In this document: positions 2,043 through 56,220 of the stretch, one piece after another | How the letters are laid out: the number at the start of each line of letters is the position of its first letter | Position numbering within the stretch: the first letter of the stretch is position 1 | Assembly (NCBI RefSeq): GCF_964194155.1 | Contig: NC_135881.1 | Coordinates: 35,278,001 to 35,342,000 of the forward strand | Origin: Cetorhinus maximus | Taxonomy: Eukaryota | Length of the DNA stretch: 64,000 nucleotides | Direction: 5' to 3' | The notes under the pieces: generated by a model | What the model saw: only the letters and a program-made list of their open reading frames with translations | Told to the model about the DNA's origin: nothing | Database searches by the model: none | Position numbers and translations under genes: made by a program

Positions 2043-2081
2043 AGTTGACGTTTCGAGTCCTCATGACCCTTCAACAGAACT
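2043..2081 (-). ncRNA. Minimal type I hammerhead-ribozyme-like motif in a Penelope pLTR
   Basis: AGTT-CTGTTGA-A-GGGTC-ATGAG-GACTC-GAAA-CGTC-AACT; stem I AGUU/AACU, stem II GGGUC/GACUC. Confidence 0.7.
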
Positions 2082-2678
2082 GAGTAATATTAGGAGAGGG
2101 GTGAAATATAAGCTGGTTTAAGGTGGGGGGGGTGGGGGGAGAGAAGTTGGGGGGGGTGGTGGGTGGTTGTAGGGACAAGCAAGCAGTGATAGGAGCAGAT
2201 AATCAAAATATTCAGTCTGGAAGGCTGTAAAGTGCCTTATAAAGTGCCTTTACAGCCTTCCGGACTGAATATTGAATTCAACAACTTTAGATCTTGAACT
2301 CCCTCCTCCATCCCCACCCCTTATCCATTTCTTCCCCCTCCCTTTTGTTTTTTCCAATAATTTATATAGATTTTTCTTTTCCCACTTATTTCCATTATTT
2401 TTAAATCTATACCTTTAATGCCCTGTCAGTCTTTCCACCCCACCCCCACTAGAGCTGTACTTTGTGTGTCCTGCCATCCATTCTTAATTAGCACATTCTC
2501 TTAGATAATATCACTACCCTTCAACACCTCTTTGTTTTGTTCCTTTGTCTGTGACATCTTTTGATTATCTGCTCCTATCACTGCTTGCTTGTCCCTACAA
2601 CCACCACCCCCCCAACTTCTCTCCCCCACCCCCCCACCTTAAACCAGCTTATGTTTCACCCCTCTCCTAATATTACTC

Positions 2679-2717
2679 AGTTCTGTTGAAGGGTCATGAG
2701 GATTCGAAATGTCAACT
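2679..2717 (+). ncRNA. Hammerhead-like motif, mutated copy
   Basis: AGTT-CTGTTGA-A-GGGTC-ATGAG-GATTC-GAAA-TGTC-AACT. Confidence 0.6.
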
Positions 2718-2988
2718 CTTTTCTTCTCCGCCGATGCTGCCAGACCTGCTGCGTTTTTCCAGCTAATTCTGTTTTTGTGTAGAGATTACAGCCTTTTACA
2801 CTAGTTGGGACATGTTCTGTATATTCCCTGTAATTCTACTTCACCTCACCCTTTTAACATAGTCTTTTATTTCTTATGCCCTCATGCTTTTCCCTTAATT
2901 CACCTGAATAGCAGCTATGCTATTTGCCTCAGGTACTCCATATAGTTGCAACTTTCACATTCTAACTGCTCTTCCTCTAATATGATAA

Positions 2989-3147
2989 GGGGTAATTTGC
3001 ACCTTCACCACTACAACAGAGTAGTTCAATTGCCCATTTCAGAACTCACTCGATTTACATTTTAATTGAAACGAAAGGAACTGAAAATCAGGCAGATTCA
3101 ATAGTGGGCTGCTTTATTGGCAAAAGGTGAAGGTGGGAATTGCTTCC
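2989..3147. mobile_element. Small MITE
   Basis: Imperfect TIRs GGGGTAATTTGCACCTTCACC / GGTGAAGGTGGGAATTGCTTCC; TAA on the left flank. Confidence 0.5.
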
Positions 3148-3789
3148 TTCATCAGCTATGTAGCACTCATTTTGCGGGTGCGACCTGACCTATGTTAGTC
3201 CCACTTTAGTCAGAGGAGCCGGTGAGAGGAGGACCCTGAGACAGGCAGTCAGTCCAGTCTGTGGCTCCAGAGCAGACCAACCACGTCCTGAGAAAAATCT
3301 AGTGTGATGCCCCAGGAAAACAAGTAGTTGATTAGCTTGAAGCTCTTGCAGCTCGTGCAGATGACAGTGAGGATTTACCTGGGAGTTGGGGAGGTGGCAG
3401 ACCTGCGTGGAACCAGTCTGGAGCGGAAGGATATAAATCGGGGGCGAGGCTCGAGGCCTGCACTCAGGGCCTTCTATGGGGGATGCGGGGTTTGGGGCAA
3501 ATCACACTCTGTGGCACCACATCCACCCCCCTGCCATAACATTTCTGAACAAGCTTCCTCTGAAGGCTGGGACCAGAGCATGTGTTTGAAAAGGAGCACC
3601 AGCAGCATCCCAACTACTGATGATTCAGTTACAAGCACATACTGCGCTATTGACTGTGATGACTGCGCCACATGTAAAATTACACCCTGCTTCCAAGGCT
3701 GAACATAATGGTTGGCTCTCCTTTTGTTAAGGGTTCCGTTATAACATTTTTGCTAACACACCCCGCACCCCAACTGGAGAAAACTTTAA

Positions 3790-3931
3790 GGCCGGAGTTT
3801 TCCTGCCCCTCACGCGGGTGGGATCTTTCGGTCTCGCCGATGTGAACGGAGGTTTCAATGGCTCGCTGGCCCCGCCATGGGGGAATCCGCTGCGGGTGGG
3901 TGGGGGGGTAGGGCGCTGGAAAATTCCGGAC
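3790..3931. mobile_element. Harbinger-type MITE
   Basis: TIRs GGCCGGAGTTTTCC / GGAAAATTCCGGAC; TAA TSD at 3787-3789 and 3932-3934. Confidence 0.7.
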
Positions 3932-4445
3932 TAAATGTCGGAGTGAGGACATTCACTGCATTCAACTTTATTTTTAAAACTACAGACGCGATGCAATAAA
4001 CAATTTGACCTTTTTTAAAAATGACTATCTTCCGATGTTGATCAAATGTTAGCTGAAAATGCATACTGGAAGGTAAAATAAGAAGTGGGGGATTTAAATT
4101 GCCCGGGACCGTAAATAAACACAGCAAGTGAGTGACTTAGCCTGCAGGTCAGATGCCATGTGCTATATGCTTTAAAGGCGTTAACTAGTTCGGAATAGAC
4201 CCCAAAGCGCGGGGCCTGAGACAGTCACTTACTAGCTGCTCTGCCTACACTTACATGGGAATCGGAGAGGGATACCAGTCAGCTTCTTGGGTCGGCGTGC
4301 GCTGAGTTTGAAGGAAGAGTGAATAAAAAAACAGTGGCATCACATCAGAGTCATAAGCCAATTGGTCGGTGAGTATCTACTGTCTGGGTCTGTGTGCAAA
4401 TAGTTAGATTCATGCACTACTTTTAGGAAAGGTGTGTAAATAGCT

Positions 4446-5468
4446 GGATTATAGGGTCAGTACTTGGGCCCCAGCTGTTTGCAATCCAAGTCAATGATTT
4501 AGATGTGGGGACCAAATATAATATTTCCAAGTTAGCCGATGACACAAAACTAGATGGGAATGTGTGCTGTGAGGATTCAAGGGAATTTAAACAGGCTTAA
4601 AAAGTGGTCAAGAACACATGGCAGGTGAAATAAAATGCGTGTGAGTGTGAGGTATCCACTTTGGTAGGAGGAATGGAGGTGTAGAGTATCTCTTAAATAT
4701 TGAGAGTTTGGGAAGTGATGATGTCCCAAAGGGACCTGGGGGTCCTTGTTCATAAGTCACTGAAAGCTAACATGCAGATGCAGCAAGCAATTAGGAAGGC
4801 AAATGGTATGTTGGCCTTCATTGCGAGGGGATTTGAGCACAGGAGTAAAGATGTCTTGCTGCACTTGTATAGAGCCTTGGTGAGACTGCACCTGGTGTAT
4901 CGCATACAGTTTTGGTCTTCTTACCCAAGGAAGGACATCCTTGCCACAGAGGGAGTGCAGTACAGGTTCGCCAGACTGATTCCTGGGATGGCGGGATTGT
5001 CTTATGAGAAGAAATTGAGGCAGTATTCTCTAGCGTTTAGAAGAATGAGAAATGACTTCATTGACACTTACAAAATTCTTAAAGGGCTAGACAGGCTAGG
5101 TGTAGAAAGGATGTTTCCCCTGGCTGTGGGGTCCAGAACCAAGGGTTGGGGGGGAGGTAGGGGGGTGGAGAGGGTGGTCTCAGAATAAGGGGAAAGCCAT
5201 TTAGGACTGAGATGAGGAGGAATTTCTTCACTCAAAGGGTGGTGAATCTTTGGAATTCTCTAACCCAGAGGGCTGCAGAAACTCAATCATTGAGTATGTT
5301 CAAGACAGTGATCAATAGATTTCTAGATACTAAAGACATCAAGGGATATGGGAATAGCATGGGAAAATGGGTCCTGAGGTAGACGATCAGTCATTATCTA
5401 GTTGAATGGAGGAGCAGGCTCGAGGGGTTAAATGGCCTATTCTTGCTCCTATTTTCCTATGTTCCAAT
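4446..5468 (+). mobile_element. CR1 LINE, 5'-truncated (RT C-terminus and 3' UTR)
   Basis: SKLADDTKL near 4527; ORF 4700-5188 has RDLGVLVH, LYRALVRLHL, LEGVQ-like motif; CR1 tail CCTATTTTCCTATGTTC. Confidence 0.9.
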
Positions 5469-6329
5469 ATGGCGGGCTGGAAGTGCACAGGCAATTCTGG
5501 TCGAAGATGTGGGTCTTTGCATTGGCATCAGGAGCAAACATCAGGAACATTTAAAGGAGGAAATAGTTGGAATTTTCTCAAGTCCAGGGTTGTCCCGCTG
5601 CTGGGATTGAAAGCGGGGACCCAATCCCACACTGCTGGGCAACGAGCCCCGGATGACATTTTACCGGTGCCAGCCAATTAAGAGGCAGCCGTCAGGGTCA
5701 CTGTCCAATTAAGGACGCCTCCCAAAGCTGCCGACCCAATCTGAGGGCTGGCAGATCAGCAGCCTTGGCAGGCTCACCAATAGAGATATGGTCATTGCTG
5801 AAGCTGCAGGAAGAAGAAGAGGGCAGCTCCATGCTGAACTGCCCTCGAAGGCCACTAATGTCTTTTTATTTACTGTGCCGGGACCAGGCAGGCAGGCAGG
5901 GGTGAACCCCAATACATGAGCTATGGGGTGGTCATAAAGGTGGGGCCCCCACAACACTCCCGGGAAAGTGCTGGGAGGCTGTTAATGTTTATTTGGCAGT
6001 CTCCTCACACACGGTGGCAGCCCCTCCCAATGCTGGTAAAATGATGGAGGGGGTGGGAAGTGGCCCTTAATTGTGCACTCAGTTATTTCAATTGGCTGCC
6101 CACCATCAGTCAGTGGGCAGCTGTGTCACTGTGGTTCCTGCCGTCAAAGGTGGGGAGATATGGGCTCCCCTACTGACACCTTCTGCCACCATTTTATGAG
6201 GCCTCCCACCTCAAAGCCCATCTCCGGGAGGCTGATAAAATCCAGTTCATTGTATTCAAATTAGTGTCCCGTGTTCTGAATGCCCCATGCTTTGATATTT
6301 AAAGGGACAATGCAAGAGTTACAGGTCCG

Positions 6330-7095
6330 TTGTTGGTTTATCTTTTCAGGCTGCCTTAGAAATAATTCAGCCACATTGGCCTGTCTTCGGGGCTGGAGGA
6401 TGAGCGGGAGCAGGAAGGAAAACACCACAGAGTAGTAGCAGCTGCCAGAAGAGGGAAGAGACAGAGTTCACTGCGGAGAATGCCAGACCCACAGCGAGCA
6501 CTGCTGCTGCATTAATTTTCCCCAGGAACAATGACAAGAACTTAACTCTGCATTCACTGCCACAGGGTTAAAATTGGGCCCATTAATAAATGTCTCAGGT
6601 GTCTTTGATTCACCAAGGAGGCTGGCACTTGCTGCAGCCACAAGTCTGTCTCAAGCTAAGGTATGGACAGCACTGCATATGGCTGACAAGGTAACGGAAA
6701 CCATTATGACAAGCTCTTTTCAAGCTGCAGTGTGGCATAAGTGACATCTCCCAGTTTTCAGTCCATTGTTGTATCAGGGAGCATTAGGCTTCGCCAATAT
6801 TGGAGATTTCCTCAGTCTGCAAGGTGCCACAGACTGCACCCACATTGCCTAGTGAGCTCCCTATCACCTTCCCGGTATCTTTCTGAAAAGAAGGGAATTC
6901 CACTCAGTGCCCAACTTGTTCGCAACCACAGGCAATTCTGTGACTGGTTTCCTGCCAGCAATCTTGGCATATTCAACCTGTACCAGCCTTTGTGCCGCCT
7001 TTATTCCAAGCATGGCAACAGGTCACAGACTGACTACTGGGCGACCAGGGCTATCACCGTCAGACATGGTTCATAACTCCTGTCAGAGACCTGGG
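6330..7095 (+). pseudogene. PIF/Harbinger DDE transposase remnant
   Basis: Frameshifted motifs DISQFSVHCCIRE, GFANIGDFLSLQGATDCTHIA (cf. GFP.VQGAIDCTH) and LLGDQGYHRQTWFITPVRDP (cf. LLGDKGYPL..WLMTP). Confidence 0.8.
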
Positions 7096-7209
7096 CATGG
7101 CTGTGGAGGTGGGCAACAAAGGTGCCACCAGAAATGTAGAAAATCAGCAGGCACAAGCTTGGGGGGGGCGGTGGGGGGTGGGGGGTGAAAGGCTGCTGAG
7201 CTTCAATTG

Positions 7210-7320
7210 CAAATACACAACTGTGGCTACATTTCACAAGTACTTCATTGGCTGTAAATTGCTTTGGGGTGTTCTGAGGCTGCGAAAGATGATACATGAA
7301 TGCAAGTCTTTCTTTCTTTT
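7210..7320 (+). mobile_element. DeuSINE/L2-type 3' tail fragment
   Basis: AAGTACTTCATTGGCTGTAAA...ATGAATGCAAGTCTTTCTTTC, similar to the tail at 45780-45860. Confidence 0.55.
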
Positions 7321-9262
7321 CCTCAAAGTCTTCTCTGCTCCAGTGGAAATAATCCTAACATTGTGATCTCCTAACTTTCTGGCATTACCCTGATGAATTA
7401 ATGCTGTACACACGCCATGCTTAATTCCAGATGCCAGCTCCTGTGCACTTCACTTGATCAGCATAGAGTATTCCACATTGTGGAGCTGTAACAATTTGAT
7501 ATGACCCTAGTTGTCTTTTGTTTTAAGTCCAGTTTATGACTGTGATGTTTCTGGGAATGACCCTGTGCCTTGACCAGCACCAAACTGAGGATGAGATATG
7601 ACTCCTCAGCCATGCATCAAGGCCAAATATTTCCAAATGCATGAAAGCAACGTGGAGCATGGTTTAATCCCAATGCATACTTCGATGGCTAGCCAGGAAA
7701 ATGTTAGCCCAGGCTTTTGCACACTTCAGGTTCCACACTCCTAGGCTACCAAAATCCGATTAAAGTGGAAGCAGCTGATGATTTAAATGGCCAGCTGCCT
7801 CCGTTAACGTGCATGCATGAAACGTGCCCTCCCCCACATCCCTGTCCCCAGCAAAAGGGGAGCGGGACTTAACGATTTTCGGCCAGTTCTACTATTTTCA
7901 CTACAACGGAGAGGCTTTCTGTTGTGGTGAAAGTCTGGGCCGTTATCCTTGTGTTAGAATGGATCTGATTTTCTCTGAACTCCATCATAAATCTTTATAC
8001 TGCAGCTATTCAGCAAATTCAAATTAAGTCAAACCAATAAAAACCAGTTGACAGAAACACCTTTTAGGTAGAGCTGATACACTGCCACATTTTTGCCATT
8101 GTTGTTTGCATGAACGTGGCAGTGAAAGAAATTACTACAGTGCTGCAGTAATAAATCAATAACTGAGGGAAATATATTTTAACTGGATTGGGACTTCATA
8201 TTTAAACCCTATCCTTACATGAGGAGGTGTAAATGCATGTTTAGTGTTAACACAAGGCCATTCCACCCAATAGGTCTATGCTGTTTATGCCCATCTTACC
8301 TCATCTAGCCCCAGCAACATATCCTTCCAGAGCTTTCTCCCGTGTGTGTTTACGTAATTTCCTCTCAAATGCATCTATGCTAGCTGTCTCAACTGCTCTA
8401 TGTGGTACTGATTTCCACACTGAGTAAAGAGAAAGTCAATCAGAGGGAGCTTTTCATTTAGAAATTCCACACTAAGGTCCAGTAGATCCCAGGGAGTGGA
8501 TTGTGCTTCAATGTTCTAAAGAGCATTTCATCACAATCTTTCAAACGAGCAGGAAATATTACTCTAAACTGAATTTACAGCTAGTAAACAGTGTGAGAAA
8601 AAAACATACAACCCTTCCCTAATGTTAAACAGATCAATAAGTGTTTAATTTAAAGGCCTTTTAGCAATAAAACACTGACTACTCCCACAGAGCACACAGC
8701 ATGGGCTTTTATCTTTTGATTGGTTACTTGCTTGAAATAAGAAAACAGCCTGCACAACACCGAATGTTTCACTTACTGAATTTCTCATTCAGCTTCTCAT
8801 AAAAAGCTGATTGCTGTTTTCTTTTCCACGCAGGACAACATTTCAATTGTGAAAATTGGGCCAGCTCTCAGATGACCTGAAGGTTGAGTCGATGAAACAT
8901 TAAATCATGTTTTCCGGAATGTTTTTGCAATTCAAATGGAAGTGCCGGAGCTAGATTTTGTGTAGAGCATTTGGGCTGATAACGTGGTTGTCAGCACCAT
9001 TAGTTATGCTGTGCATTGGGTAGCTGCTCCTCATATTCGGCCTAGGCCTGAGGCCTACTCAGCCTCCTGCATGGACAGCAAATGCTATGCCCTGCACACT
9101 TCTGTAAGGCTCAGAGCCTGCAGGTGTGTTGTACACAGCACTCCTGAAGGTCTAAAACAAAAATAAAGAGCTAAGCCCAAAATACAATCAGATTCCTCAA
9201 AAGCAGGGTTTTCCATGGTGAGCACTCAATAGACAGTCATGGGAAACTTTTTCTCTCTCAGT

Positions 9263-10428
9263 GGCCTCAATTTTCATCCTCGGGGTAGGTAGCTTGTGTC
9301 GGGAAAATTCCAAACTCAGCCCGCCTGCCTCGGGAGGACGTGCCCGCAAAGGCAGGATCTTCGTTGTCAGGGGCAGATGTGGGCTGGAGTTGGGCTAGCT
9401 GACCTGGGAAGACTGGAGGCAGCCACAGGGGCTGCCAGTTGTGGAGACAGGCTGTTTAAAGGGCCCACCTCTGTGTCGTTGGACTTTGTCCCAGTTAAAA
9501 TAAAAAACACAAAGGCCCTCCAGCCCTCATCCTTCACACCCCCTTCACCCTCCAAACACTCTCCCTGCCACCTCATTCCCTCCATACCCAACTCCCATGG
9601 CCCTCAAGCCCCCTCTGTCAAGCTATGGCACTTCCATTCTCATTGACCCACTGTCTAGAGCCAATGAACCCTATAGTGTATAGTAGAATGTGTATGCTTG
9701 GCTAAGAGCCCAGAAAACCATTAATTAAAACATCAGTTCCCCAAAGAAAGTGTACACCTCCATTGGTTGATTAACACCTCAGGCTCTCTGATCTCTGCTG
9801 TCAATTTCACAATGTTTATTTACACAACGTTAAGTGTTTTCAAGGATTTGTGGTTTTGTTATTGTTTTTTAAAGGGTCTGGAAGATTGGCACTTTTTATT
9901 AGTTTGTAGTAAAATGACCTTTTTTTCCAAACCACAAGAGAAAGTTATGAATGAATTTCTTTGTCTCAAAGCTTTTTTGTTTACACATGGGGGTATGAAC
10001 GATGATAGGGGATGGGTGAAAGGACTTTGCTTGGGGGAATGAGGAACCATGGGGGTGGGGGGCAGTGGTGTAAGGGTGGAACTTGGCATAAGAGGCATGA
10101 GGGGGCCTTTTGAACTCACCTTTTAAAAGGTCTACTCACGTAGAGTGGGGTTCATGACTCCTCTGAGGGGCCGTGAACCACAATTCTTTAAAATTCTGGC
10201 CCAACTCCATGAAAATTGTGGAGGAGTAGGACAATGCCCATCTCCGCAATGGAGCTGTCCAGGTCAGGGGTGCTGGGTGCAAGCTTCTGACAGTAACCAG
10301 CCCGCACCCTTAAAGCACTCCCGAAAAGTCAGGCAGCCCAGGAATGGGGGTCGGAATCCCGGAATTGGGAGCCAGCCACCATTTTCAAAGGGCTCCCGAC
10401 TCAACCAGACTCGGTGAAAATCCAGGCC
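9263..10428. mobile_element. Non-autonomous Harbinger-like element, about 1.17 kb
   Basis: TIRs GGCCTCAATTTTCA / TGAAAATCCAGGCC; 3-bp flanks AGT/ATT. Confidence 0.55.
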
Positions 10429-17470: not shown

Positions 17471-17474
17471 GGCA

Positions 17475-24684: not shown

Positions 24685-26090
24685 GGTTGCAGTTGGTGGC
24701 TGAAGCAGGTAGCAGGTATCAGTGAGGAGGTCCTTACTGAAATACATGGCATCTCCTACTTATTCCTTGCTGAGGTTCAGGTAGGAGAGTTGCTTCCTGA
24801 ACACCCTGGGTGCATCCTGGGAGCCCCCTCTCCTGCCCACTTCCTTCGTCTTCTCGCAGCGTGTCCTGCTCTGTGTGGCCTCGGTCCATTCTCCAAGTCA
24901 TGCTGCATTCATGGGGGATGTTTATGAGTGCATCTATGTCTGGGAGCAACTGGTTTGTGCAAAAGACCTGAAGTAAGCAAAAAATTCTTAAGCATCTACT
25001 ACACCACTCCCTTTAGATTTCCACAACTTTAAATAACTATAGAAAGCAGCAAACATTTGTACAATCAAAAGAGCATCCACAAGAAATCAATGATAACCAG
25101 CCAAGTGCTTGATGATCCTTAAATTACACTGGTGGGGAGTCCTTCCTGTTGCTGTTTAAGAGAGGGCATTAGTTTCAGCATGGAGCTCCAAAATAGCATT
25201 GCTGACATCAACTGACGTCAGGATTTGTCTGCTCTGCATACTGCCGTAACCATAACCCTGTTTATCCCCTTCAAGTATTTATCCATTTCTCTTTTGGATT
25301 TGCTACTGAATCTGCTTCCACCAAACTTTCAGGTGGTGGATCCCAGATCACAACACCTCACTGAGTAAAAAATGTTGCCTCATGTCACCTCTGGTTCTTT
25401 TGCTATTCACCTTAAATCTGTGCCGTCCGGTTATGAACACTTCTGCCGCTGGAAATAGTTTCTCTTTATTTGCTCAGTCAAAAGCATTCAGGGTTTTGAA
25501 AACCGCTATCAAGTTTCCTCTTAACCCACTTTGTGCTGAGAAACCCTAGCTTCTCCAGTCTCTCCACAAAACTGAAGTCCTTCATCCCTCGTACCATTCC
25601 AGCAAATTTCTTCTGTACCCTCTCCAAGGCCTTGTCATCCTTCCCAATGGTGCCCAGAATTGAACATAATACTCCATCAGAGGACTAGCCAGTGTTTTAT
25701 AAAGATTTGGCACAACATCCTTGCTTTTGCACTCTATTCCTTTTATTAATAGAGTATGCTTTAACTGCCTTGACCAGCCACCTTTGATTTGTATAATACA
25801 CCTCCAGGGCTCTCTGTTCCTGTACCCTCTTTAAAATTGTGCCATTTAGTTCATGTTGCCTCTCCTTTTTCTCCCTACCAAAATGTATCATCTTAGACCT
25901 TTCTGCATGAAGTTTCACCTGCCATGTGTCTGCCCATTTTACCAGTCTGTCTATGTCTTCCTGAAGTCTGTTGCTATCCTCTTCATTGTTAAATACATTC
26001 CCAAGTTTCATATCATCTGTGAACTTTGAAATTATATTCTCAATTCCAGGTTATTAATGTATATCAAAAGACCAGTTGTCCTCATACTGA

Positions 26091-26249
26091 CAGAAGCGAA
26101 AAACTGTTGACGCTGTAAACAGGAAATAAAAACAGAAAACACTGGAAATGCTCAACAGTTATGGAAGCACCTTTGGAAAGAGAAACATTTCTCCACAAAT
26201 TCTGCCAGGCCTGCCAAAGTATTTCCAGCATGTTCTGCGTTTAGTTCCA
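26091..26249. mobile_element. Old miniature Penelope fold-back
   Basis: Inverted pLTR 3' ends; 7-bp TSD ATACTGA (26084-26090, 26250-26256). Confidence 0.6.
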
Positions 26250-26531: not shown

Positions 26532-26742
26532 CTTCACAAACAAAAACAGAAAATGCTGGGAAAACTCAGTGGGGCTAACAGCATCTTTGGAGAGAAAAAC
26601 AGAGTTAACATTTCGAGTCCATATACGGACTCGAAATGTTAACTCTGTTTTTCTCTCCACAGATGTTGTTGAACCTGCTGTGTTTTTCCAGCATTTTCTA
26701 TCTTTGTTTCCGATCTCCAGCATCCGCAGTATTTTGCTTTTG
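26532..26742. mobile_element. Miniature Penelope fold-back with its apex at hammerhead stem II
   Basis: 33-bp perfect inverted repeat 26588-26620 / 26627-26659; TSD-like TATTCATTTT at 26522 and 26743. Confidence 0.8.
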
Positions 26743-26749
26743 TATTCAT

Positions 26750-30100: not shown

Positions 30101-32190
30101 AGCAACGAGCCTTAACAAGCTCTTTAAGGAGCTTAACAGGCCATTAACTGGTGGTGAGTGGGTTTCCCATTCCCTCCCCACTGCAAAAAACTTTGAAAAT
30201 TACAAACTCTCCCGGAGGTTGCAGGACCTAGTGCCATCCTCTCCCGAAACCTAATGTTCAATTTTACCCGCATTCGCCAACACCTCCTCCCTGCAATTGC
30301 AAATCCAAGCCAATGTGTCTATGTGTGCTGGCCCAACATGAATCCATGTCCTCAGAGGTGGGAGAGAAATGAACTCAGATTGTAGAAGAATTAGTATCAC
30401 ATGGCATGTATATGTCCCAGCTTTCTATTCAGGCTTCAATGCATTAGCCTATATTAATGATTTATATTAAAGTAATATAACTACTTAACATGCTCAATCT
30501 TGAGATTTCCTTCATTTTTATTTAGAGCACTGTAATGTCCAAGAGATTGAAAATCATAACTGACAATTCCACTGCAAGTCCAACAGCTTTATTAGCAAAA
30601 AATTAAACTTAAAAAAACAGTTCGGAGTGATTTAGAACATGCAGCTACCCCCCTAGTTCAGACTAGGTTGACTGCAGGTCAATTGGATATAATCTGAGGA
30701 CTGACCCTGCTTTCAGTAGAACCTGTGGATGGTTACGCTCCAATGATCCCGTATCGATGAAGGTCTTTGACCATTCTTTATATTTTGGCTACGCAGCCAC
30801 TGCCTCATGCCCGATCATTCTGAGCCCCTTGATTGGTCTCCGGGGTGTGTGATCAGTCTTTGATTGACCCATGTCCCAGTGGACTTAGTCCATATATAGT
30901 TTATTTTTTCACGTGATCCTCCTACAGGTAATTGATTAGCCACAGGATATCTGGCCTTCCTGTTGTTGCTTCAAGTCCTTACTTGTTTTCGCAAATGGTT
31001 GTGCGACTGCCCATGAGTCACGAGGCATCCGCATGTATCAAAGGTACACAACCACAGCAAGCTCCATCAATAAATGGTTCACGGTCAAATTGAATCTGGA
31101 GCATTCTTTTTAGCAAACTTACACAGAAGCTCTTAAGCATATTCCTACTGCACTTAACTGAACAACCCAGAATGACCTCACTTTTGTGCGTGTGTGTACA
31201 TCTGCTTGTCTGCAATTGTGCAACAAAGCAATCATTACCTATGCCGAAATATTAAATCGTTACAATTTTGCCATTGTCTTTTTAACAACCGTATCAATCA
31301 CCCTGCAGATGACCTTGTGTAGTCTGCATGTCATGGCACGCTAGGAGCATCCTGCCCCTCCAATTAAAGTTTGCCTACACCACAGAGTGATTGTACTATG
31401 ACATAGCTACACTGGCCTCACAATTGATGGACTCTTTGTAGGGTTGCTCTGCATGCATCTAGAAGCAGTACTTAAGCATCTGAGAGGGCTGTTTTAATGA
31501 ACAAATGTAATTAATAAAAGATATAGCCTCCCTTTATTGGGTTAAAAGGTGGAATATTGTTGGGGATATCTGAGAGGAAGGGAAAGAGAAAGGGAATGAT
31601 AGAATGTTGGTTTTTGTTTTTGTTTTAAATTTCTGGGCTTGATGGGAAGACACCTGGAAAGGTGGGAAAGATGTTTATTTTTAACAATGATTTCATGTTG
31701 GTTTTGCGGTACAGCACAGTCATAAAAGCAAGATATTTCAACATAAGCAGGATATGTATTTTTAAAAACAGCAGATATTAATGAGTTGGTTACCCAATTC
31801 CCAGGCTTGTGGCCCAGGCATTTAATTGGGCACCTTTAGAACAGCAGAAGGTGCAACAAAAGTTTGATGGGATGAAAACGCAGCCTGCAATGTTAGCATA
31901 TCAACACGATGTTCCTCAATTTCCTGAAAGTTATGTTAATATGCTGATTTTTAACGCAAAAGATAAAGGAAATGCTCATACAAATTATGTCAGTTCCTAC
32001 TCCAAGCACAAGTTTCCCCAATCTATTGTGCCGATTCAATGAAACCTCCACAGAAACCCTCTACCTCTCTCTCACATAGCCCCACCCCTTATGCAGCAGA
32101 GCAGAGAAAACAGGTTTTTTGCATTATAAACAAAAACAAAAGTACCTGGAAAAACTCAGCAGGTCTGGCAGCATCTGCAGAGAGGAACAC

Positions 32191-32229
32191 AGTTAACGTT
32201 TTGAGTCCGAATGACCCTTCAACAGAACT
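32191..32229 (-). ncRNA. Hammerhead-like motif, G12 mutated
   Basis: AGTT-CTGTTGA-A-GGGTC-ATTCG-GACTC-AAAA-CGTT-AACT. Confidence 0.55.
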
Positions 32230-32592
32230 AAGTAAAAATAGAAGAGAGGTGAAATATAAGCTGGTTTAAGGGGGGGTGGGACAAGTAGAGCCAGTGATAG
32301 GTGGAGATAACCAAAAGATGTCACAGACATAAGGACAAAGAGGTGTTGGAGATGGTGATATTATCTAAGGAATGTGCTAATTAAGGGTAGAAAGCAGGAC
32401 AAGCAAGGTACAGATAGCCCTAGTGGGGGTGGGGTGGGGGGAAGGAATCAAAAAAGGCTAAAAGGTAGAGATAAAACAATGGATGGAAATACATTTAAAA
32501 ATAATGGAAATAGGTGGGAAAAGAAAAATCTATATAAATTATTGGACAAAAAAGGGGGGGTTCGGAAAAGGGGTGGGGATGGAGGAGAGAGT

Positions 32593-32922
32593 TCATGATC
32601 TAAAGTTGTTGAACTCAATATTCAGTCTGGAAGGCTGTAAAGTGCCTTGTCGGTAGATGAGGTGCTGTTCCTCCAGTTTGCGTTGAGCTTCATTGGAACA
32701 ATGCAGCAGGCCAAGGATGGACATGTGGGCATGAGAGCAGGGTGGAGTGTTGAAATGGCAAGCGACAGGGAGGTCTGGGTAATGCTTGCGGACAGACCGA
32801 AGGTGTTCTGCAAAGCGGTCACCCAGTCTGCATTTGGTCTCTCCAATGTAGAGGAAACCGCATTGGGAGCAACGAATGCAGTAGACTAAATTGAGGGAAG
32901 TGCAAGTGAAATGCTGCTTCAC
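32593..32922 (-). pseudogene. Penelope GIY-YIG endonuclease fragment
   Basis: NLVYCIRCSQCGFLYIGETKCRLGDRFAEH...HFN...H...RKLEEQHLI...LNIE. Confidence 0.9.
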
Positions 32923-32989
32923 TTTAAAGGAGTGTTTGGACCCTTGGACGGTTTAACTGGCTCTACTTGTCCCACCCCCCCTTAAACCA

Positions 32990-34015
32990 GCTATGCCTGT
33001 ATCTTTATGGGGTATGTGAACATTCCTTGTTCCAGTCCTACTCCGGCCCCCTCCCACAACTCTTTCAACAGTACATTGATGATTACTTCGGTGCTGCTTC
33101 ATGCTCTCGTCTGGACCGTGAAAAATTTATTAATTTTGCTTCCAATTTCCACCCCTCCATCATTTTCACATGGTCCATCTCTCACACTTCCCTTCCCTTC
33201 CTTGACCTCTCTGTCTCAATTTCAGGTGATAGACTGTCCACCAATATCCATTACAAGCCTACCAACTCCCACAGCTACCTCGACTACAGCTCCTCACACC
33301 CCACTTCCTGTAATGACTCCATCCCATTCTCTCAGCTCCTTCGCCTCCGTCGCATCTGTTCTGATGATGCCACTTTCAAAAACAGTTCCTCTGACATGTC
33401 TTCCTTCTTCCTTAACCGAGGTTTTCCACCCACGGTGGTTGACAGGGCCCTCAACCGCGTCCGGCCCATCTCCCGCACATCCACCCTCACACCTTCCTCT
33501 CCCTCCCAGAAACAGGATAGGGTCCCCCTTGTCCTCACTTATCACCCCACCAGCCTCCACATTCAAAGGATCATCCTCCGCCATTTCCGCCAACTCCAGC
33601 ATGATGCCACCACCAAACACATCTTCCCTTCACCCCCCCGGCGGCATTCCGCAGGAATCGTTCCCTCCGGGACACCCTGGTCCACTCCTCCATCACCCCC
33701 TACACCTCAACCCCCTCCCACGGCACCTTCCCATGCAACCGCAGAAAGTGCAACACCTGCCTCTTTACTTCCGCTCTCCTCACCGTCCAAGGGCCCAAAC
33801 ACTCCTTTAAAGTGAAGCAGCATTTCACTTGCACTACCCTCAATTTAGTCTACTGCATTCGTTGCTCCCAATGCGGTTTCCTCTACATTGGAGAGACCAA
33901 ACGCAGACTGGGTGACCGCTTTGCAGAACACCTTCGGTCTGTCCGCAAGCATTACCCAGACCTCCCTGTTGCTTGCCATTTCAACACTCCACCCTGCTCT
34001 CAATCCCACATGCCC
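32990..34015 (+). pseudogene. Penelope RT C-terminus, Cys linker and GIY-YIG, frameshifted
   Basis: QYIDDYF, LPFLDLSV, HYKPTNSHSYLDYSSSHP, SIPFSQLLRLRRICS; CNRRKCNTC linker in a shifted frame; VYCIRC..C...YIGET. Confidence 0.9.
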
Positions 34016-34210
34016 ATTAGGGCTATCTGTACCTTGCTTGTCCTGCTTTCTACCCTTAATTAGCACATTCCTTAGATAATATCACCACCTTCAACACCTC
34101 TTTGACCTTTTGTCTGTGACATCTTTTGGTTATCTCCACATATCACTAGCTCTACTTGTCCCACCCCTTCTTAAACCAGTTTATATTTCACCTCTCTTCT
34201 ATTTTTACTT

Positions 34211-34249
34211 AGTTCTGTTGAAGGGTCATTCAGACTCGAAACGTTAACT
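34211..34249 (+). ncRNA. Hammerhead-like motif
   Basis: AGTT-CTGTTGA-A-GGGTC-ATTCA-GACTC-GAAA-CGTT-AACT. Confidence 0.7.
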
Positions 34250-34719
34250 GTGTTCCTCTCCGCAGATGCTGCCAGACCTGCTGAGTTTTTCCATGTATTT
34301 TTGTTTTTGTTTTGGATTTCCAGCATCCACAGTTTTTTGCTTTTATTTCGGCATTATACCAGCTCTGAAACAGTTCTGCAAATTAATACCCAGTATTATG
34401 GGCACAGTAGAACTCAAAGTCGTATTCCTGATGCTTCATGGGCAGAGGAGTGGTGGTTATTATATTTTTTTTTATTTCTCTTCAGGGCGAGCTACACTAT
34501 TTTTCTGTAATGTTGAATGCATTTTTATAGAAGTAAAATGAGTTACATTAAAAATGGAAAAACTATTTTTTTATAAGATGCTGCGCCTCAAATACATAAA
34601 TAATGGTTTGATGGCTTCAAACTTTAACTGTCATACGTAAAGGGAGACTTAAAGGGGGTATATGGGACAGGCTGCACAGTTTTATCAGGCCCTGATTGGG
34701 TGTACTTTTTCTGCTTGTT

Positions 34720-41914: not shown

Positions 41915-42015
41915 TTACTAATAGTAATTTCCTTCAATTCCTCATTCTCTCTAGGCTTTTGGATCGCTAATTCTGAAAGGTTACTTGTATCTTGCTCAGT
42001 GAACGCAGACGTAAA

Positions 42016-45860: not shown

Positions 45861-45983
45861 ATCATTCTTCTCTGTAAAGAAATTTATTCCAATTGCTTTC
45901 TTCACTCTCTTAATGATAATTTTAATTTAATGATCCTCATTCACTCTATCAAACTGTTTCATAATTTTGAAAATTTCCTTTTA

Positions 45984-46686: not shown

Positions 46687-46817
46687 TTAGTCTTCTCTGT
46701 AATACTCCTAACATATCAAGTCTCTCTTCATAACCATAGTTCCCCAATTCTCGACACCATCCTGGTGAACCTACATTATACATACTCTATGGTTTTAATT
46801 CACTGGCACTCAACTAT

Positions 46818-49053: not shown

Positions 49054-49269
49054 TATGGCCTAACCATCACATTGTACAAATACATTATTATTTCTTTACT
49101 GTTGTGCTTGATGCTCCCTAATAAGAAAACCCCAAACTCTTGGCTTTTTTCTGAATTTGTCAATTTGCATTTGCACTTTCAGGGAACAATTTACATGGGC
49201 CCCTTGGTCTCGCCATTCTTTCAAAACTTTCAGTCTCTTTCCATTAGCAGTGTAACAATGAATGCCAAG

Positions 49270-50300
49270 CCAAAGATTGAGAAGTTAGGAAAAGTGACCA
49301 AACAAATGCTTAATCAAGTGAGTTTTAAGATCATCCTTAAAGGAAGAGAGGGAGGTAATAATGCAAGGGGGTCTAGGGAGGGAATACAGGAAATGGAGCC
49401 TAGGCAACAGAAGGCAAGACTGTCAATGGCGTGGCATAGACTGAGGGGATGCAAAAGAGGCTGGAGACAGAGATCAGAGGGATGTAGAAAAAATAGATAT
49501 AGGAAACAGAGTTTTAGATAATCTCAAGCTTACGAAGGGTGGATGATGGGAGATAAATCCACAAGAACATTGGCATAGTCAAGACTGGAGGTAACAAAGG
49601 GTTAAGGGTAATAAGGATTTCAATGTCAAATGGGCTGAAATAAGAGCAGCGATAGACAACGGCCGGGATTTTCCAGTCCCACCAGCAGCAGTTACCGTCA
49701 CGGGCAGGACAGGAAAATTTGAAGAGCAGCCAATTTGGCTCTCTTCAAATTTTCCTGTCCCACCTGTGCTGATGCCCGCCACTGGTGGGACCGGAAAATT
49801 CCACCCAGTGCTGTGGTGATGGAAGCAGATGACCTTCGTGACAGAGATATATAGGATCAGAGCTCAGATTGGATTGTATTTGATGCTGAGCTTGTGAGCA
49901 GTTTGGTTCATTCTCGACAGGAAGGAACTTGGAATTGTTGACGAGTTTGAGAAGTTGGTGGCAGGGCCAAAGGTGATAACTTCAGTCTTCCCAAAGTTTA
50001 ACTTGAAGAAATTTTATGTCATGAAGATTGGATGTTGGACAAACAATCTAACAATACAGAAGGAAAGGAAAGGTGATGGAAAGGTAAATGATAGCAACGT
50101 AGATGCAGTAGCTGACCCCATGTCTGCAGGTGATGCAATCCAGAAAAAACATATAGATGGGGAAAAGCAGGCGATAAGGATAGATGCTAGTGGAACTCCA
50201 GAGTTAACAGTGCAAATGTAAGAGGATAAGCCATTGCTGAAAATATTCCTGTTAAGATGGGATAAATACCGTGGAACCAAGTACAGTATTAAGGAGACAT
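49270..50300 (-). mobile_element. L2 LINE RT remnant
   Basis: ORF 50014-50307 has VNSGVPLASIL (cf. SGVPQGSIL); highly decayed. Confidence 0.5.
49661..49806. mobile_element. Palindromic 146-bp MITE
   Basis: Near end-to-end inverted repeat; inner arms GGACAGGAAAATTTGAAGAG / CTCTTCAAATTTTCCTGTCC. Confidence 0.8.
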
Positions 50301-51485
50301 AGAGCATTTTGTGCCTCTTGACAGGGATGCCATGACAAGTGACTAAAGATGCATCTACTAACTTACAATATAATGGCTAGAACTAAGTGTTTCCCCTGCA
50401 GTTTTATGACCTGCTCATCTGCTGTCTGGGACACTTCTCCTTTCTTTAAGTGTTGTGGCTTTCATGAGCATTGTACACAAGTTTATCTCAGAACAAGTTT
50501 GAGGGAATTAAGTGAAGGCCAACAATTGAGGGCTGCCTGCCAAGTGTCATCAGACATAATAGATCCACTGGTATCACCCTGTTAAAGTGGAGGAAGGGTT
50601 TTTTTAAAGCTCTGTATGCAAGTTATTGCTGATTGGGAGATCATGACACATATATTGTCAGATTAACATGGTGCAGTATGAAGGGTGATTCATGCAGCTA
50701 ATTATTTTAGAGGGTTTACAATGTGTTGGTCTCCATGGTGCTTAAGGACAGAGAGGTGGAGTGTGCTGGTGTGTTGCTTCCTACTGTTATTAGGTCCTTG
50801 AATCTTTTTGTTCAGCACTTGCCTATGATTCTAAAGTGAGAGGGGTATTGCTCAGAGCCACTCCGCATGCTGCTCAAGACATCTTTTTTTAGTGGCTACC
50901 TCCTACTGATACTGAAGACTGTTTCTCTCATTTGTTTCATCTCCTGCAAGAGGGTTTGTAAGTCAGTCTCATGAAAGGTTTTCTCCCTTCTTTCCTGCCT
51001 CCTTCCATTGCCCTGATCCTTTCTTTTGATGGCACCTACTACATATACTGTATCTGAGTTCCTCAGACTGCCAAAACGTTCCCTGCTTATTTGTTGATGC
51101 CCTATATCGTGCTGCTGAAATCTGCAATCACTCTAGGCTCTGAAAAGGCAATTTCCATTCTCCCCAGTGTCATGATCCCACATTACACAAGAATTGCACT
51201 CAGCCAGAGTCAGTGCATAGTTAAAAGAGCTGACCTAGTTAAACGAGGTGCATCTCAGCCATGGTCTAATTGAACAGTGGAGCAGACTCAAGGGACTGAA
51301 TGGCCTACTGCTGTCCCTATGATTTAAAATGGGATGAACGCTAGGATGATTTGAGGATGGAAATGCTGTACCATTTCTGGCAGGCAACACATAAGTAAAT
51401 GACCCCATGGATTTTTTTGGGGTTTATTGCTCTGTATGAAATTTGTCCTTGAAGTATTTTTTTAGGCTGAGGCTGAGTTTGGTGC

Positions 51486-51690
51486 GGTAATAAACTTGGA
51501 AAGTGCAGGATGGGTTTCTTGTAAGAAACAATGAACTTTATTTACAGACTTCAGATGAGGTTACATGCTTGTTCGAAGACCAAGACTAAAAAGCTCCACC
51601 ACTAAGATTCCCCACGCTTAGGGCTGATTGATCTAGACAGTCACATGATGCCCATAATGGTAAGAAATGGTTTAACTTACAATCATTACA
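51486..51690 (-). repeat. 3' LTR, preceded by PPT AAAGGGGGAGGAA (51691-51703)
   Basis: Begins TGTAATGATTG on the minus strand; direct repeat of 57396-57600. Confidence 0.9.
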
Positions 51691-52049
51691 TTCCTCCCCC
51701 TTTACTTTTGTTTTACCCTCTTATTTACAAAAAATCTTAACCCATATTAAATGTAAAATATACAGTTCATGCCATTATAAATTTAGTCTTTGAGGAAGTT
51801 TTTAGATTTGGGTAGAGCGACGCAACTCTACAACTGGAAGTTCTTCCACTGGATCGACTTGCACAGGAACTGCAGCTTCAGGGACATCCCTAGACAATGG
51901 CCGTTCAGAATTATTTATTTCAACAGAGACATCAGGTATGTCTATCCTTTGTCGATCTGGCACCTCAGGTGTCGAAGTTTCAACTTCGATTTCAGGTGGA
52001 CTAACTGATTTTTGGAGTGTTTCTCAACTTCTGAGATGATCCACATGTT

Positions 52050-54650
52050 TCCTAACAATCCTGTTTTCCACTTCTACCTGATAAGATAAAGGTCCTGTTT
52101 CAGAGACGATTGTATCAGGAACCCATCTCGGCCCAGTTGCAAAATATCGTACAAAAACTGTCTCTCCCACAGTAAACTCTCGACCTTTACTGTGAACGTC
52201 ATGATTTACTTTCTAACACCCCTGGTTTCTCTCCGCCTTCCCCTCTAAATTAGGGAATACTAGACTCCATCCCATATGAAGCCGATGCTTCATTAACAAT
52301 CCTGAATGTGTTAAACCAGTGGGTGCATGAGGAGTTGTGCAATAGCTGAAAGGGAAGCTTGAAATTTGTGTTTCTAATTTCCCTCTGATAGTTTCTTCAT
52401 GCTGGTTTTAAAGGTTTGTACTGCTCTTTCTGCCAAGCCATTAGGCAAGGGATGGTACGATGCTGTTCTGACATGTTTAATCCCATTTAGGTTCGCAAAT
52501 CTTTGGCATTCAGTGCTAGTGAAAGCCGTAACATTGCCTAACACAATAACTTCAGGTAAAGCACGAACACTGAAACTCTAGCACTGTTTTTCAATGATTG
52601 CAGACAAAGTGGGTGATCTCACTTCAAACACGCCTATCCATTTGGGATGTGCGTCAATAATTACGCGAAACATGGTACCTAGAAATGGATCTACATAGTC
52701 TATATGTAGTCTCACCCAGGGTCAACCAGGGCACTCCCACGGATGCAGTGGAGCTGAAACGGGCAACTTCTGCTGTTGCTGGCACTGGAGACAGTGCATC
52801 ATCATTTTTTCTATATCATTGTCTATACCTGGCCACCAGATATACCTTTGTGCGAGTATCTTCATTTTTGAAATACCTGGATGCGCACTATGAAGCTCTT
52901 CCTTGGACAGAGATAACAGCTCTTGCTCCCCATAACAAGATACCATCTTGACAACTCAGTTCGGATCTATATATAAAGAATGGATTCAATTCTTCAGGAA
53001 CTTGTGCATTTGACCATCCTTGTAATACTTGTTCACGACTCTTGCTAAAATTGGATCTCTATTTGTCCAATTCTTTATCTGTCTCGCTCAGACTGGTGAG
53101 GAGTCCAGGAAACTTAATGCAAGTACTACCCCTTGAGGTACATGTGTAATACTATTGGGCAAAGGGAGACGACTGAGAGCATCTGCCTTTGCTATATGCA
53201 CACCCGGACAGTGTATAAAAGTGTACTCATACGCCGACAAAATTAAAGCCCATTTTTGAATTCTTGCAGAAGCTATTGGTGGAATTGCCTTTTCACTGAA
53301 CAACCCTAACAATGGTTTCTGAACTGACACCATGGTGAAGTGTCAACCATGTAAATATTGATGGAAATTCTTTCCAAATGTGATAGATGAGCCCTCTTTT
53401 TCAATTTGCGATTAACCTTTCTCAGCTGTAGAAAGTGTTCTGGATACATATCCTATCGGTCTTTCAGATCCATCCTCCATCTTTTGTGGCAATACTGCTC
53501 CCACTCCGTAGGGAGATGCATCACAAGTGAGTATCAATTCCTCAGATGGGTCATAACAGACATGACGAGTGTAAAAGTTTCTTAACTCTAGTGAAGGCTT
53601 CCTCTTGCTGTGTCTTTCAGGACCATCTTTGGTTCTTCTTCAGTAATAAGTGTAAAGGGGCTAACATTATAGATAGATTAGACTGTAATAATTTACCCTG
53701 CCTAAAAAAGACTTGAGCTCCGTGATGTTGGTAGGAGAGGGCGCTTCCTTGGTTGCTCTGACTTTCTCCTCTAATGGATGCACCCACTCAATGACCCAGA
53801 TAAGCAACTTCCTTTGCTTGGAAGGTGAACTTTTCTTTTTTTTAAATGAACACCAGCCTCTAAAGATCTCTTTCGAACCTCTTCCAGGTTTGCTACGTGC
53901 TCTGCTTCTGTGGATCCTGTGATTAGGATGTTATCCAGGTACACTATAACTCGGGGGAGTCCTTGTACTAAGCTTTCCATGGTTCTCTGGAAAATCGCAC
54001 AAGCAGAGGACACGCTGAAGTGTAGGCCTGTGTACTGATACAGGCTCTTGTGCGTGTTTATGGTGACATAACTTCTTGATGTGTTGTCCAACTCAAGCTG
54101 CTGAAACACTAGACTCATGTCCAGTTTAGTGTAGGATCTTCTCCCTGTGAGTTTAACATCTTTGGGATTACACACTTGTCAAATTTCGCAGCCTTGTTTA
54201 TCATTGATTTATAACCCCCACAGATTCGAATGGTTTGGTCTGGTTTTAGCACAGGGACTATGGGTGCTGCCCATTCTGAAAATTGGACTGGCTGTATTAT
54301 TCCTAACTTTTCCAAACAAAATAATTCCGCAATTAACTTTTCACCTAGAATGTGAGGCACAGACCTTGTCTTAAAAAACCGGGCTGTTGCTTCAGAGTCC
54401 ATGTATATTTTAGCTTGCAGACCGTTGATTTTCCCCAGCTCATCTCAGAATACTCTGTCATATTTTTTCAGCAACTCTGGAATTCCTCCTGTCCTGATCA
54501 GAAAAATTTCTGTCCAGTTTAATTTAATTTCTTTCAACCAAACAGGTCCTTCTTCACCTGTTACAACAATAATTGGAAGTTGAGCTGTCTGTTGCATGTA
54601 TGATACAGGTACAGGGGTGATGCCTTTCACGTTTATTGCTTCTCTTGTAT
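52050..54650 (-). pseudogene. pol: Gypsy pol remnant (RT, RNase H, integrase)
   Basis: FSEWAAPIVPV, YLDNILI (cf. YLDD), CDAS, ADALSRLP, LHSAHPG...CLQCQ zinc finger. Confidence 0.88.
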
Positions 54651-56220
54651 AAAAGCAAAAAAACTGCGGATGCTGGAAATCCAAAACAAAAATAAAAATA
54701 CCTGGAAAAACTCAGCAGGTCTGGCAGCATCTGCGGAGAGGAACACAGTTAACGTTTCGAGTCCGTATGACTCTTCAACAGAACTAAGGGAAAATAGAAA
54801 AGAGGTGAAATATAAGCTGGTTTAAGTGGGGGAGTGGGGGGGCAGGTAGAGCTGGATAGAGGGCCAGTGATAGGTGGAGATAGCCAAAAAATGTCATAGA
54901 CAAAAGGACAAAGAGGTGTTGAAGGTGGTGATACTATCTAAGGAATGTGCTAATTAAGGGTAGAAAGCAGATCAAACAAGGTACATATAGCCCTAGTGGG
55001 GGTGGGGTGGGGTGAAGAGAAGGGATCGAAATAGGCTAAAAGGTAAAGACAAAACAATGGATGGAAATATATTTAAAAATAATGGAAATAGGTAGGAAAA
55101 GAAAAATAGAAAAAAAAGAAAAAAATTACTGGAAAAAAAAGGGGGATTGGAAAGGGGGTGGGGATGGAGGAGAGAGTTCATGATCTAAAATTGTTGAACT
55201 CAATATTCAGTCTGGAAGGCTGTAAAGTGCCTAGTCGGAAGATGAGGTGCTGTTCCTCCAGTTTGCGTCGAGTTTCACTGGAACAATGCAGCAGGCCAAG
55301 GACGGACATATGGGCATGAGAGCAGGGTGGAGTGTTGAAATGGCAAGCAACAGGGAGGTCTGGGTAATGCCTGCGGACAGACCAAAGGTGTTCTGCAAAG
55401 CGGTCACCCAGTCTGCGTTTGGTCTCTCCAATGTAGAGGAAACCGCATTGGGAGCAACGCATGCAGTAGACTAAATTGAGGGAAGTGCAAGTGAAATGCT
55501 GCTTCACTTGAAAGGAGTGTTTGGGCCCTTGGACGGTGAGGAGAGGGGAAGTAAAGGGGCAGGTGTTGCACTTTCTGCGGTTGCATGGAAAGGTGCCGTG
55601 GGAGGGGGTTGAGGTGTAGGGGGTGATGGAGGAGTAGACAAGGGTGTCCCAGAAGAAACAATCCCTGTGGAATGCCGCCGGGGGGGTGAAGGGAAGATGT
55701 GTTTCGTGGTGGCATCATGCTGGAGTTGGCGGAAATGGCGGAGGATGATCCTTTGAATGCAGAGGCTGGTGGGGTGATAACTGAGGACAAGGGGGACCCT
55801 ATCATGGTTCTGGGAGGGAGAGGAAGGTGTGAGGGTGGCGCGGGAGATGGGCCGGACACGGTTGAGGGCCCTGTCAAACAGCGTGGGTAGAAAACCTCGG
55901 TTAAGGAAGAAAGAAGACATGTCAGAGGAACTGTTTTTGAAAGTGGCATCATCGGAACAGATGCGACGGAGGCGAAGGAATTGAGAGAATGGGATGGAGT
56001 CCTTACAGGAAGCGGGGTGTGAGGACCTGTAATCGAGGTAGCTGTGGGAGTCGGTAGACCTGTAATGAATATTGGTGGACAGTCTATCACCAGAAATTGA
56101 GACCGAGAGATCAAGGAAGGGAAGGGAAGTGTCAGTGCTGGACCATGTGAAAGTGATGGAGGGGTGCAAATTGGAAGCTAAATTAATAAATTTTTCCTTT
56201 TGCCTTTGGATTTTTAAATT
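54651..56220 (-). mobile_element. Neptune-type Penelope element inserted in the Gypsy protease region
   Basis: RT ORF 55504-56169 and GIY-YIG ORF 55178-55507; degenerate 15-bp TSD TTGCTTCTCTTGTAT / TTGCTTGTCCTGTAT (54636-54650, 56221-56235). Confidence 0.92.
54747..54785 (-). ncRNA. Hammerhead-like motif
   Basis: AGTT-CTGTTGA-A-GAGTC-ATACG-GACTC-GAAA-CGTT-AACT; stem II fully Watson-Crick paired. Confidence 0.72.

Follow-up and report, generated by a model that had tools for sequence, protein, structure and literature searches.

Penelope-like hammerhead motifs in the genome of the shark Cetorhinus maximus and the succession of bases at core position 6

Hammerhead Motifs and Their Insertions

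Penelope-like elements and the small hammerhead motif that they carry are described here for the shark Cetorhinus maximus, starting from a stretch of 64,000 nucleotides (NCBI RefSeq assembly GCF_964194155.1, contig NC_135881.1, positions 35,278,001 to 35,342,000 of the forward strand), referred to below as the window and numbered from its first letter. A preliminary description of the window had listed five hammerhead-like motifs, starting at 2043, 2679, 32191, 34211, and 54747, and these are all present where they were placed, each with U at core position 6 (5/5) and each made up of AGUU, CUGUUGA, an extra A, a 5-bp stem II, and AACU. Also as described, GAAA is found in four of them and AAAA in the copy at 32191, while the cleavage triplet is GUC in two copies and GUU in three; positions 15.2-16.2 are CG or UG in all five. 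The reported stem II variants GGGUC and GAGUC are seen as well, but the copy at 2679 has GGGUC/GAUUC with GAAAUGUC, not GACUC with GAAACGUC. The proposed connection to Penelope elements is borne out, as these are minimal hammerheads located in the pseudo-long terminal repeats (pLTRs) of three truncated Neptune-type Penelope-like insertions, the five motifs originating from only three insertions, with 2043/2679 and 32191/34211 representing inverted arms of single events. The copies at 2043 and 2679 belong to subfamily S4, those at 32191 and 34211 to S3, and the copy at 54747 to S2.

Insertion 1 (1944..2781) consists of an inverted arm with a long tail (about 1944-2211, minus strand) and a sense arm with a short tail (about 2248-2781, plus strand), the latter opening with the last codons of the open reading frame (ORF), LQPSGLNIEFNNFRS*. 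The hammerhead of the inverted arm (2043..2081, minus strand; U6, GUC) has its predicted cut at 2047/2046, and that of the sense arm (2679..2717, plus strand; U6, GUC), which has two CpG-type decays (GAUUC and AUGUC), at 2713/2714. The arms are 2.7% divergent in the ungapped best local alignment and 93.5% identical by blastn. Insertion 2 (32128..34345) is a 5'-truncated Neptune-type element with an inverted 5' copy (32128-32952, minus strand) and a sense part extending to the long tail, the arms being 95% identical. Its inverted arm carries the hammerhead at 32191..32229 (minus strand; U6, GUU), in which G12 is changed to A at a CpG site, and its sense arm the hammerhead at 34211..34249 (plus strand; U6, GUU within an AACGUU palindrome; predicted cut 34245/34246). 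The AUUCA loop and the AAAA of the 32191 copy are both located at CpG sites and look like decay after insertion. The plus strand of this insertion also holds a reverse transcriptase (RT) remnant frame with the YIDD motif and the thumb, frameshifted at its end (32928..33815), whose two best homologs of 34 are shark proteins (59-61% identity), and a Cys linker (CNRRKCNTC) with the beginning of a GIY-YIG endonuclease (33605..34063), the endonuclease piece matching Pfam at E=1.6e-4, slightly short of the curated cutoff. Past the predicted cut lie the conserved tail block and the optional tail (34265..34345, plus strand), the likely region of RT start by analogy with the green anole element (PMC11167929). 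Insertion 3 (54650..56196, minus strand) is a single 5'-truncated copy, with an RT thumb frame (55504-56241), an endonuclease frame (55178-55714), the pLTR, the hammerhead, and a long tail, the hammerhead (54747..54785, minus strand; U6, stem II GAGUC/GACUC, GUU; predicted cut 54751/54750) being found at its 3' end.

The Host Element

The type of element is recognized from the CX4CxxC linker, the YIDD-containing RT remnant, and the GIY-YIG piece in the frames of the window. Elements of the Neptune/Nematis type are recognizable by a CX2-5CxxC linker that joins RT to the endonuclease (PMC8557442); being common to both, the linker does not tell Neptune and Nematis apart. When the N-terminal RT piece was searched against the 3.99-Gb genome, 150 of 12,192 candidates were scored, and 40 stretches were taken from these, picked mostly for long open frames. 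The 40 stretches contain 35 intact ORFs, start codon included; 33 are 917 amino acids long, with a median nucleotide identity of 99.6%, and the family thus was active very recently. The 917-residue frame is the single ORF of the element and carries ADKG and YIDD, and the linker reads CPRRRCNTC in intact elements, as compared to CNRRKCNTC in the window. Partial-tandem or inverted pLTRs with an optional tail of 30-40 nt are found, 29 units being in tandem, and the motif, which has the sense orientation, occupies the 3' end of the pLTR and precedes the start codon of the next unit by about 190 nt. Coding constraint on the motif was considered and rejected, as the ORF begins about 190 nt downstream of the motif start and coding thus cannot account for conservation of the motif.

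Within the 5' leader of the ORF, the conserved tail block opens with an AUG, giving a short frame, MLPDLLSFSR (2336-2368 in locus L119; 34266 onward in the window), which in young subfamilies is closed by a stop. The summed contig depth of four runs, taken by guess to be RNA, is about tenfold or more higher over the 3' half of the motif and the tail block (L119 2302-2395) than over the ORF, as would be expected from abundant stubs within other transcripts, contigs being unable to give expression or RNA ends.

Identity of the Motif

The motif is not a chance occurrence, a 34-place pattern giving 38,528 exact matches in the genome versus 0 for the reversed control. A search of Rfam returned 12 matches at E<=5, none of them a hammerhead, so the assignment rests on a manual fit to the published layout of minimal hammerheads, as given in the available text of the metazoan survey (PMC4209133). 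Most features of this layout are found. Stem I is AGUU/AACU or AGUU/GACU, with pairing in 99% of cells across 26 chosen copies; the 10.1-11.1 pair of stem II is G-C in 226/242 copies; a further feature of the layout, an A, is present in 240/243; the palindromic 15.2-16.2 that replaces stem III is CG in 8/8 subfamily consensuses; and around the cut site G12 to A15.1 and U16.1 are invariant in the consensuses, with U or C at position 17 (U in 209 and C in 31 of 243 copies). The canonical CUGANGA core with its A6 is the feature that is found in older subfamilies only, and in neither the window copies nor the intact units. Lunse, Weinberg, and Breaker reportedly described, in 2017, small hammerhead variants of Penelope-like elements that cleave as dimers, by title the same class of motif.

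Position 6 across the Genome

The 38,528 exact copies, all of the GACUC type, divide into 23,053 with U6U7, 8,997 with C6, and 5,824 with A6. A second stem II type, GGGCC/GGCUC, which is the youngest, is represented by 10,260 copies, and C6 is found in 99 of the first 100 listed. The preliminary description had named a prevalence of CUGANGA among young copies as the outcome that would speak for local decay; only five of these 10,260 copies have A6. An old sister family, AGGUC/GACCU, has 202 exact copies, of which the first 100 have A6 in 85, G in 11, U in 3, and C in 1. Exact patterns bias such counts toward young copies, and in randomly placed DNA (80 stretches of 10 kb, 800 kb in all, with 60 profile hits, 37 covering the motif) A6 is the most common state, with A in 23, C in 8, U in 4, and a gap in 2. 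The claim of a fixed CUGUUGA thus has to be given up, as U6 is neither fixed nor the current state, the youngest intact elements having C6 in 29/29. The companion claim, that U6 is not a product of local decay, stands: with 23,053 exact CUGUUGA copies, U6 is an inherited state of the master lineage, local decay being ruled out by the counts, by the pLTR tree, and by the ages described below. Decay of CpG from a CUGUCGA master, another origin considered, is not supported, as only 654 of the 38,528 copies have neither A6, C6, nor U6U7.

Order and Age of the Subfamilies

The subfamilies form a ladder, CUGAAGA > CUGAUGA > CUGUUGA > CUGCCGA > CUGCUGA, as judged from a tree from which the motif was excluded and from two age clocks, and U6 is the middle stage of a succession from A to U to C. 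For the tree, 76 of the 147 pLTR copies with a long upstream part were used, at most 10 per label and with the 39-nt motif removed, the window copy at 54747 entering as L047. Position 6 changes 7 times on this tree, versus 33 for shuffled labels, and the youngest C6 clade has a support of 100/99; the bootstrap is not fully settled, and the order was taken from those copies whose terminal branches are longest. The ladder does not accommodate a small group with CUGCUGA/GUC and a few stray copies. On the first clock, divergence from own consensus with the motif excluded (groups of 3 to 32 loci), the two A6 groups have medians of 5.1 and 4.8%, the three U6 groups medians of 3.4, 2.1, and 3.2%, the two CC groups medians of 2.1 and 2.7%, and CU a median of 0.5%, the U6 and CC ages overlapping. 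On the second, divergence between the arms of single insertions, pairs from different insertions within one locus being excluded by eye, CU/GGGCC pairs differ by 0-0.9%, CC pairs mostly by 0.2-2.5%, UU pairs mostly by 1.5-5%, and A6 pairs by 5.6-14%. In each of the 29 tandem units whose ORF reaches at least 900 amino acids, both pLTRs have C6, as CUGCUGA in 22 units and as CUGCCGA in 7.

One possible driver of the CUGAUGA to CUGUUGA step is the loss of an upstream AUG, formed by A6, U7, and G8. Against this, the older CUGAAGA has no AUG at this place, and an AUG arises in the loop in S4-S7.

Conserved Core and Stem Covariation

Across the eight subfamily consensuses, C3, U4, G5, G8, A9, G12, A13, A14, A15.1, and U16.1 are unchanged, and core changes are limited to positions 6 and 7, with three at each along the ladder. 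The core bases other than these are thus 10/10 invariant, compared to 139/237 upstream columns (Fisher p=0.006, a rough value, as it takes the columns to be independent although the consensuses come from one lineage and from small samples, with n=3 in S0 and S5). The preliminary description had the stem II loop varying freely, which does not fit the consensuses, its first two bases being AU in 8/8. The same description had held that a lack of covariation in the stems would speak against it, and covariation is found: pair 4 of stem II is U-A in 142, C-G in 95, and other in 5 of 242 copies. The C-G pair is found only together with C6, placing the swap from U-A to C-G after the loss of A6. Pair 2 varies among A-U, G-U, and G-C, and pair 4 of stem I is U-A or U-G. 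In the 26 hand-picked copies 99.6% of cells pair, versus at most 48% with the partners slid, and two pairs show double changes. In the old sister family pairs are swapped further, from G-C to A-U at 10.1-11.1.

Folding predictions differ among the groups. For U6U7 monomers a mispaired core is predicted, with G5 paired to C15.2 at a probability of 0.97 in 12 distinct copies, as compared to 0.01-0.07 in the A6 and C6 groups, and a different, weaker mispairing is predicted for A6U7. The idea of U6 as a folding off-switch was considered and found weak: the mispairing is predicted for U6 only and not for C6, so it provides no general explanation, and A6U7 has a predicted mispairing of its own.

What the Copy Ends Record

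A 30-nt pattern of the tail has 96,419 exact matches in the genome. The ends of 110 copies were mapped in the first 3 Mb of contig C1, most of them taken from the tail-pattern list and some first fetched by the hammerhead pattern, which favors intact motifs. The 3' ends form two peaks, of 51 and 49 among the 110, which lie some 66 and 101 nt downstream of the predicted cut, the distance of about 35 nt corresponding to the known optional tail. As to the 5' ends, counted from the motif start, 65 are beyond -30, 4 at -29 to -6, 22 at -5 to +5, 13 at 6 to 31, 2 at 32 to 39, around the cut, and 4 beyond. This clustering at the start of the motif is significant (22/41 ends within 11 of 69 nt, p=3e-8), and two intact units begin at +2 and +3 of the motif. 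A corresponding peak was looked for at the predicted cut and none was found, only 2/110 copies starting in the surrounding 8 nt. As 104/110 copies cross the cut, the RNA that was copied was presumably uncut, in the A6 subfamilies as well. Many tiny head-to-head pairs joined at the first bases of the hammerhead are also seen, in L004, L021, L022, L040, L207, and others, forming perfect fold-backs of about 200-270 nt.

The simplest reading of the 5' peak is that the RNA starts at stem I, at the sequence YYAGTTC, which we take to be initiator-like from the initiator consensus. A splice acceptor at the AG of stem I is another candidate source of the shared start, and the pyrimidine tract and YAG fit it; yet copies starting there have no common upstream exon, and no such joint is seen among the RNA contig matches listed. 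The same peak invites the proposal that the constraint acts at the level of DNA, with the motif overlapping an internal promoter and its conservation being that of the promoter, plus hitch-hiking in a single master lineage. YYAGTTC is indeed present in 8/8 consensuses and in the old family, and the Penelope of Drosophila has an internal TATA-less promoter (PMC2377424). A promoter, however, needs no base pairing, while stem II underwent a double compensatory swap with only 5/242 copies being unpaired intermediates or decays, and the old family has more pair swaps, at 10.1-11.1, making this proposal improbable.

Two other proposals concern the cutting itself. One is that the U6 and C6 motifs are fully active, with a dimer, the element's protein, or Mn2+ replacing the contacts of A6, and that the cut RNA is simply never copied. 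The core is intact apart from the changed positions, the hammerhead of the anole element is assisted by protein (PMC11167929), and A6C costs little in Mn2+ (PMC7151607). The 3' product of the cut would, however, keep the tail, and yet just two of the 110 copies start near the cut; moreover, the mispairing predicted for U6 monomers argues against it, even if A6U7 is also predicted to mispair, more weakly. We regard full activity as very improbable. The other proposal is that the motif no longer cuts and serves as a signal at the 5' end, recognized by the RT-endonuclease or used in translation start, A6 being the first base freed when catalysis lost its importance. This alternative, the main rival of the reading preferred below, we consider possible, if doubtful. 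It agrees with the crossing of the cut in nearly all copies, with the expansion of the lineage to tens of thousands of copies without A6, and with loop and tail bases of no catalytic role being as invariant as the core; catalytic mutants of the anole element were without effect on insertion in vitro (PMC11167929), and Naiad elements proliferate without canonical hammerheads (PMC8557442). Not expected for a pure binding site is that change would be confined to core positions 6 and 7, sparing exactly the catalytic set. Likewise, position 17 has moved solely between U and C, both of which are allowed at the cut site by the NUH rule.

A Slowed Ribozyme?

The reading that we prefer, at about even confidence, is that the motif of the active lineage, as it passed from A6 to U and to C, became a slowed ribozyme, cutting only some of the RNAs or only with help. 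The RNA would begin at the A of stem I and RT would start in the downstream tail, as in the anole element. If RT starts downstream of the motif, the template has to stay uncut, and fast cutting then is unnecessary and maybe costly, so that A6 would be free to go. A6 is a structural base, its change to C slowing other hammerheads and not killing them, while the catalytic bases G8 and G12 and the C3-G8 pair would be kept because of low-level cutting being useful, as it might trim read-through RNA or supply a translatable pool. Cutting would probably need a dimer formed via the ACGU palindrome, or the element's own protein.

There is literature to support these steps. The A6C hammerhead from mouse gut cuts at 0.067 per min at 1 mM Mg and at 0.18 per min at 0.3 mM Mn (PMC7151607), and in two ribozymes A6C slows cutting without abolishing it, activity being spared in Mn2+ (PMC7151607, PMC3088659). 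In the anole element cutting by the hammerhead requires the element's protein, insertion proceeds mainly from uncut RNA, and RT begins internally, at two sites (PMC11167929). For viral hammerheads of modest activity in 5' untranslated regions, a balance has been proposed between cut RNA that is translated and intact templates (PMC13725137).

A number of points weigh against a slowed ribozyme. In a deep mutational scan all single mutants of the CUGA turn were of low activity (PMC9901934), the rates in PMC7151607 are for C6 in tertiary-stabilized ribozymes, and no cleavage rate for U6 was found in the literature searched. The metazoan minimal hammerheads are weak already with A6 (PMC4209133), so A6U together with a U17 site may leave no activity. 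As starts at the cut site are lacking in the A6 subfamilies too, the ends give no sign of a change in cutting with the loss of A6. The core is not special in its conservation: the tail block, not part of the ribozyme, is 28/30 invariant, the AU of the loop is invariant, the best 30-column upstream window is 25/30 invariant, and the columns behind the core p-value are not independent. The compensatory swap at pair 4 is one event counted in many copies, a C-A mismatch is present in stem I in 12/242 copies, mostly old, and with flanks included stem I is usually absent from the predicted fold (pair probability <=0.54, 9 copies). Lastly, the intact elements come from a selected set (40 stretches out of 150 scored hits and 12,192 candidates), and a young A6 family could remain unsampled.

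It also seems conceivable, if rather unlikely, that the hammerhead has turned into a structure that is switched off, or gated by protein or Mn2+, and that acts at the transcript start as a loading or translation signal, the A6, U6, and C6 copies being its dated intermediates.

Other Features of the Window

An older fold-back stub of the same element family, absent from the preliminary description, is found at 26538..26744, with two tails placed head to head inside the hammerhead stem II; the 5' half of the core is absent, and this stub is the source of the top chance matches in Rfam. Beside it, at about 26090-26245, is a second, more degraded two-tail stub. At 53771-54178 (minus strand) there is an RT fragment with a YLDN motif, for which Pfam gives RVT_1 only and which has, as we take it, the look of a long terminal repeat retrotransposon. 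A large near-perfect inverted repeat extends over 57689-64000, with arms of 947 nt (99%), 519 nt (97%), and 926 nt (94%), and contains pieces of RT of the long interspersed nuclear element type; it looks like a recent inverted duplication.

Comparison with Known Systems

The role of the hammerhead in endonuclease-positive Penelope-like elements has been stated to be unclear (PMC8557442), and the copies described here amount to a series provided by nature for testing it. Some A6 and U6 copies differ by that one base over the entire 39-nt motif, and together with the later C6 forms and the near-identical intact 917-residue elements these could show whether Penelope-like elements need, tolerate, or avoid cutting. 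In addition, a search that demands CUGANGA passes over those copies that are youngest and most numerous in this genome. In the literature searched, with Lunse 2017 and one supplement file of PMC4209133 outside its coverage, no shark Penelope hammerhead, natural A6U core, or lineage-wide loss of A6 was found, and sharks are unmentioned in the available text of the minimal hammerhead survey (PMC4209133).

The closest resemblance is to the minimal hammerheads of metazoans (Cervera and De la Pena, 2014; PMC4209133), with which the shark motif shares a short stem I, an extra base between A9 and G10.1, the G10.1-C11.1 pair, a palindromic 15.2-16.2 with no real stem III, and a location in pLTRs, with most copies in truncated elements. 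Unlike these, its stem II has 5 bp, and while the exception in the core there, as far as the available text goes, is U3-A8, here it is the change from A6 to U to C across the active lineage. Another example is Poseidon of the green anole (PAc; Frangieh et al., 2024; PMC11167929), in which, as here, the hammerhead lies upstream of two end points about 35 nt apart and inserted copies derive from uncut RNA. The ORF of PAc, however, starts inside the hammerhead, whereas some 190 nt separate the motif start from the beginning of the 917-residue ORF, and the shark element, unlike PAc, has the Cys linker of the Neptune/Nematis type. A third example is the A6C hammerhead of phage Bcep176 (Perreault, 2011, PMC3088659; Naghdi et al., PMC7151607), which has the substitution of our youngest subfamilies and is slowed in Mg2+ and active in Mn2+. 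That is a single phage case with a full stem III, whereas the shark motif, of minimal, dimer-type layout, belongs to a vertebrate retroelement and is present in tens of thousands of copies. Penelope hammerheads and a natural A6C variant were thus already known, and what the shark elements add is a dated succession from A to U to C, with stem compensation following later.

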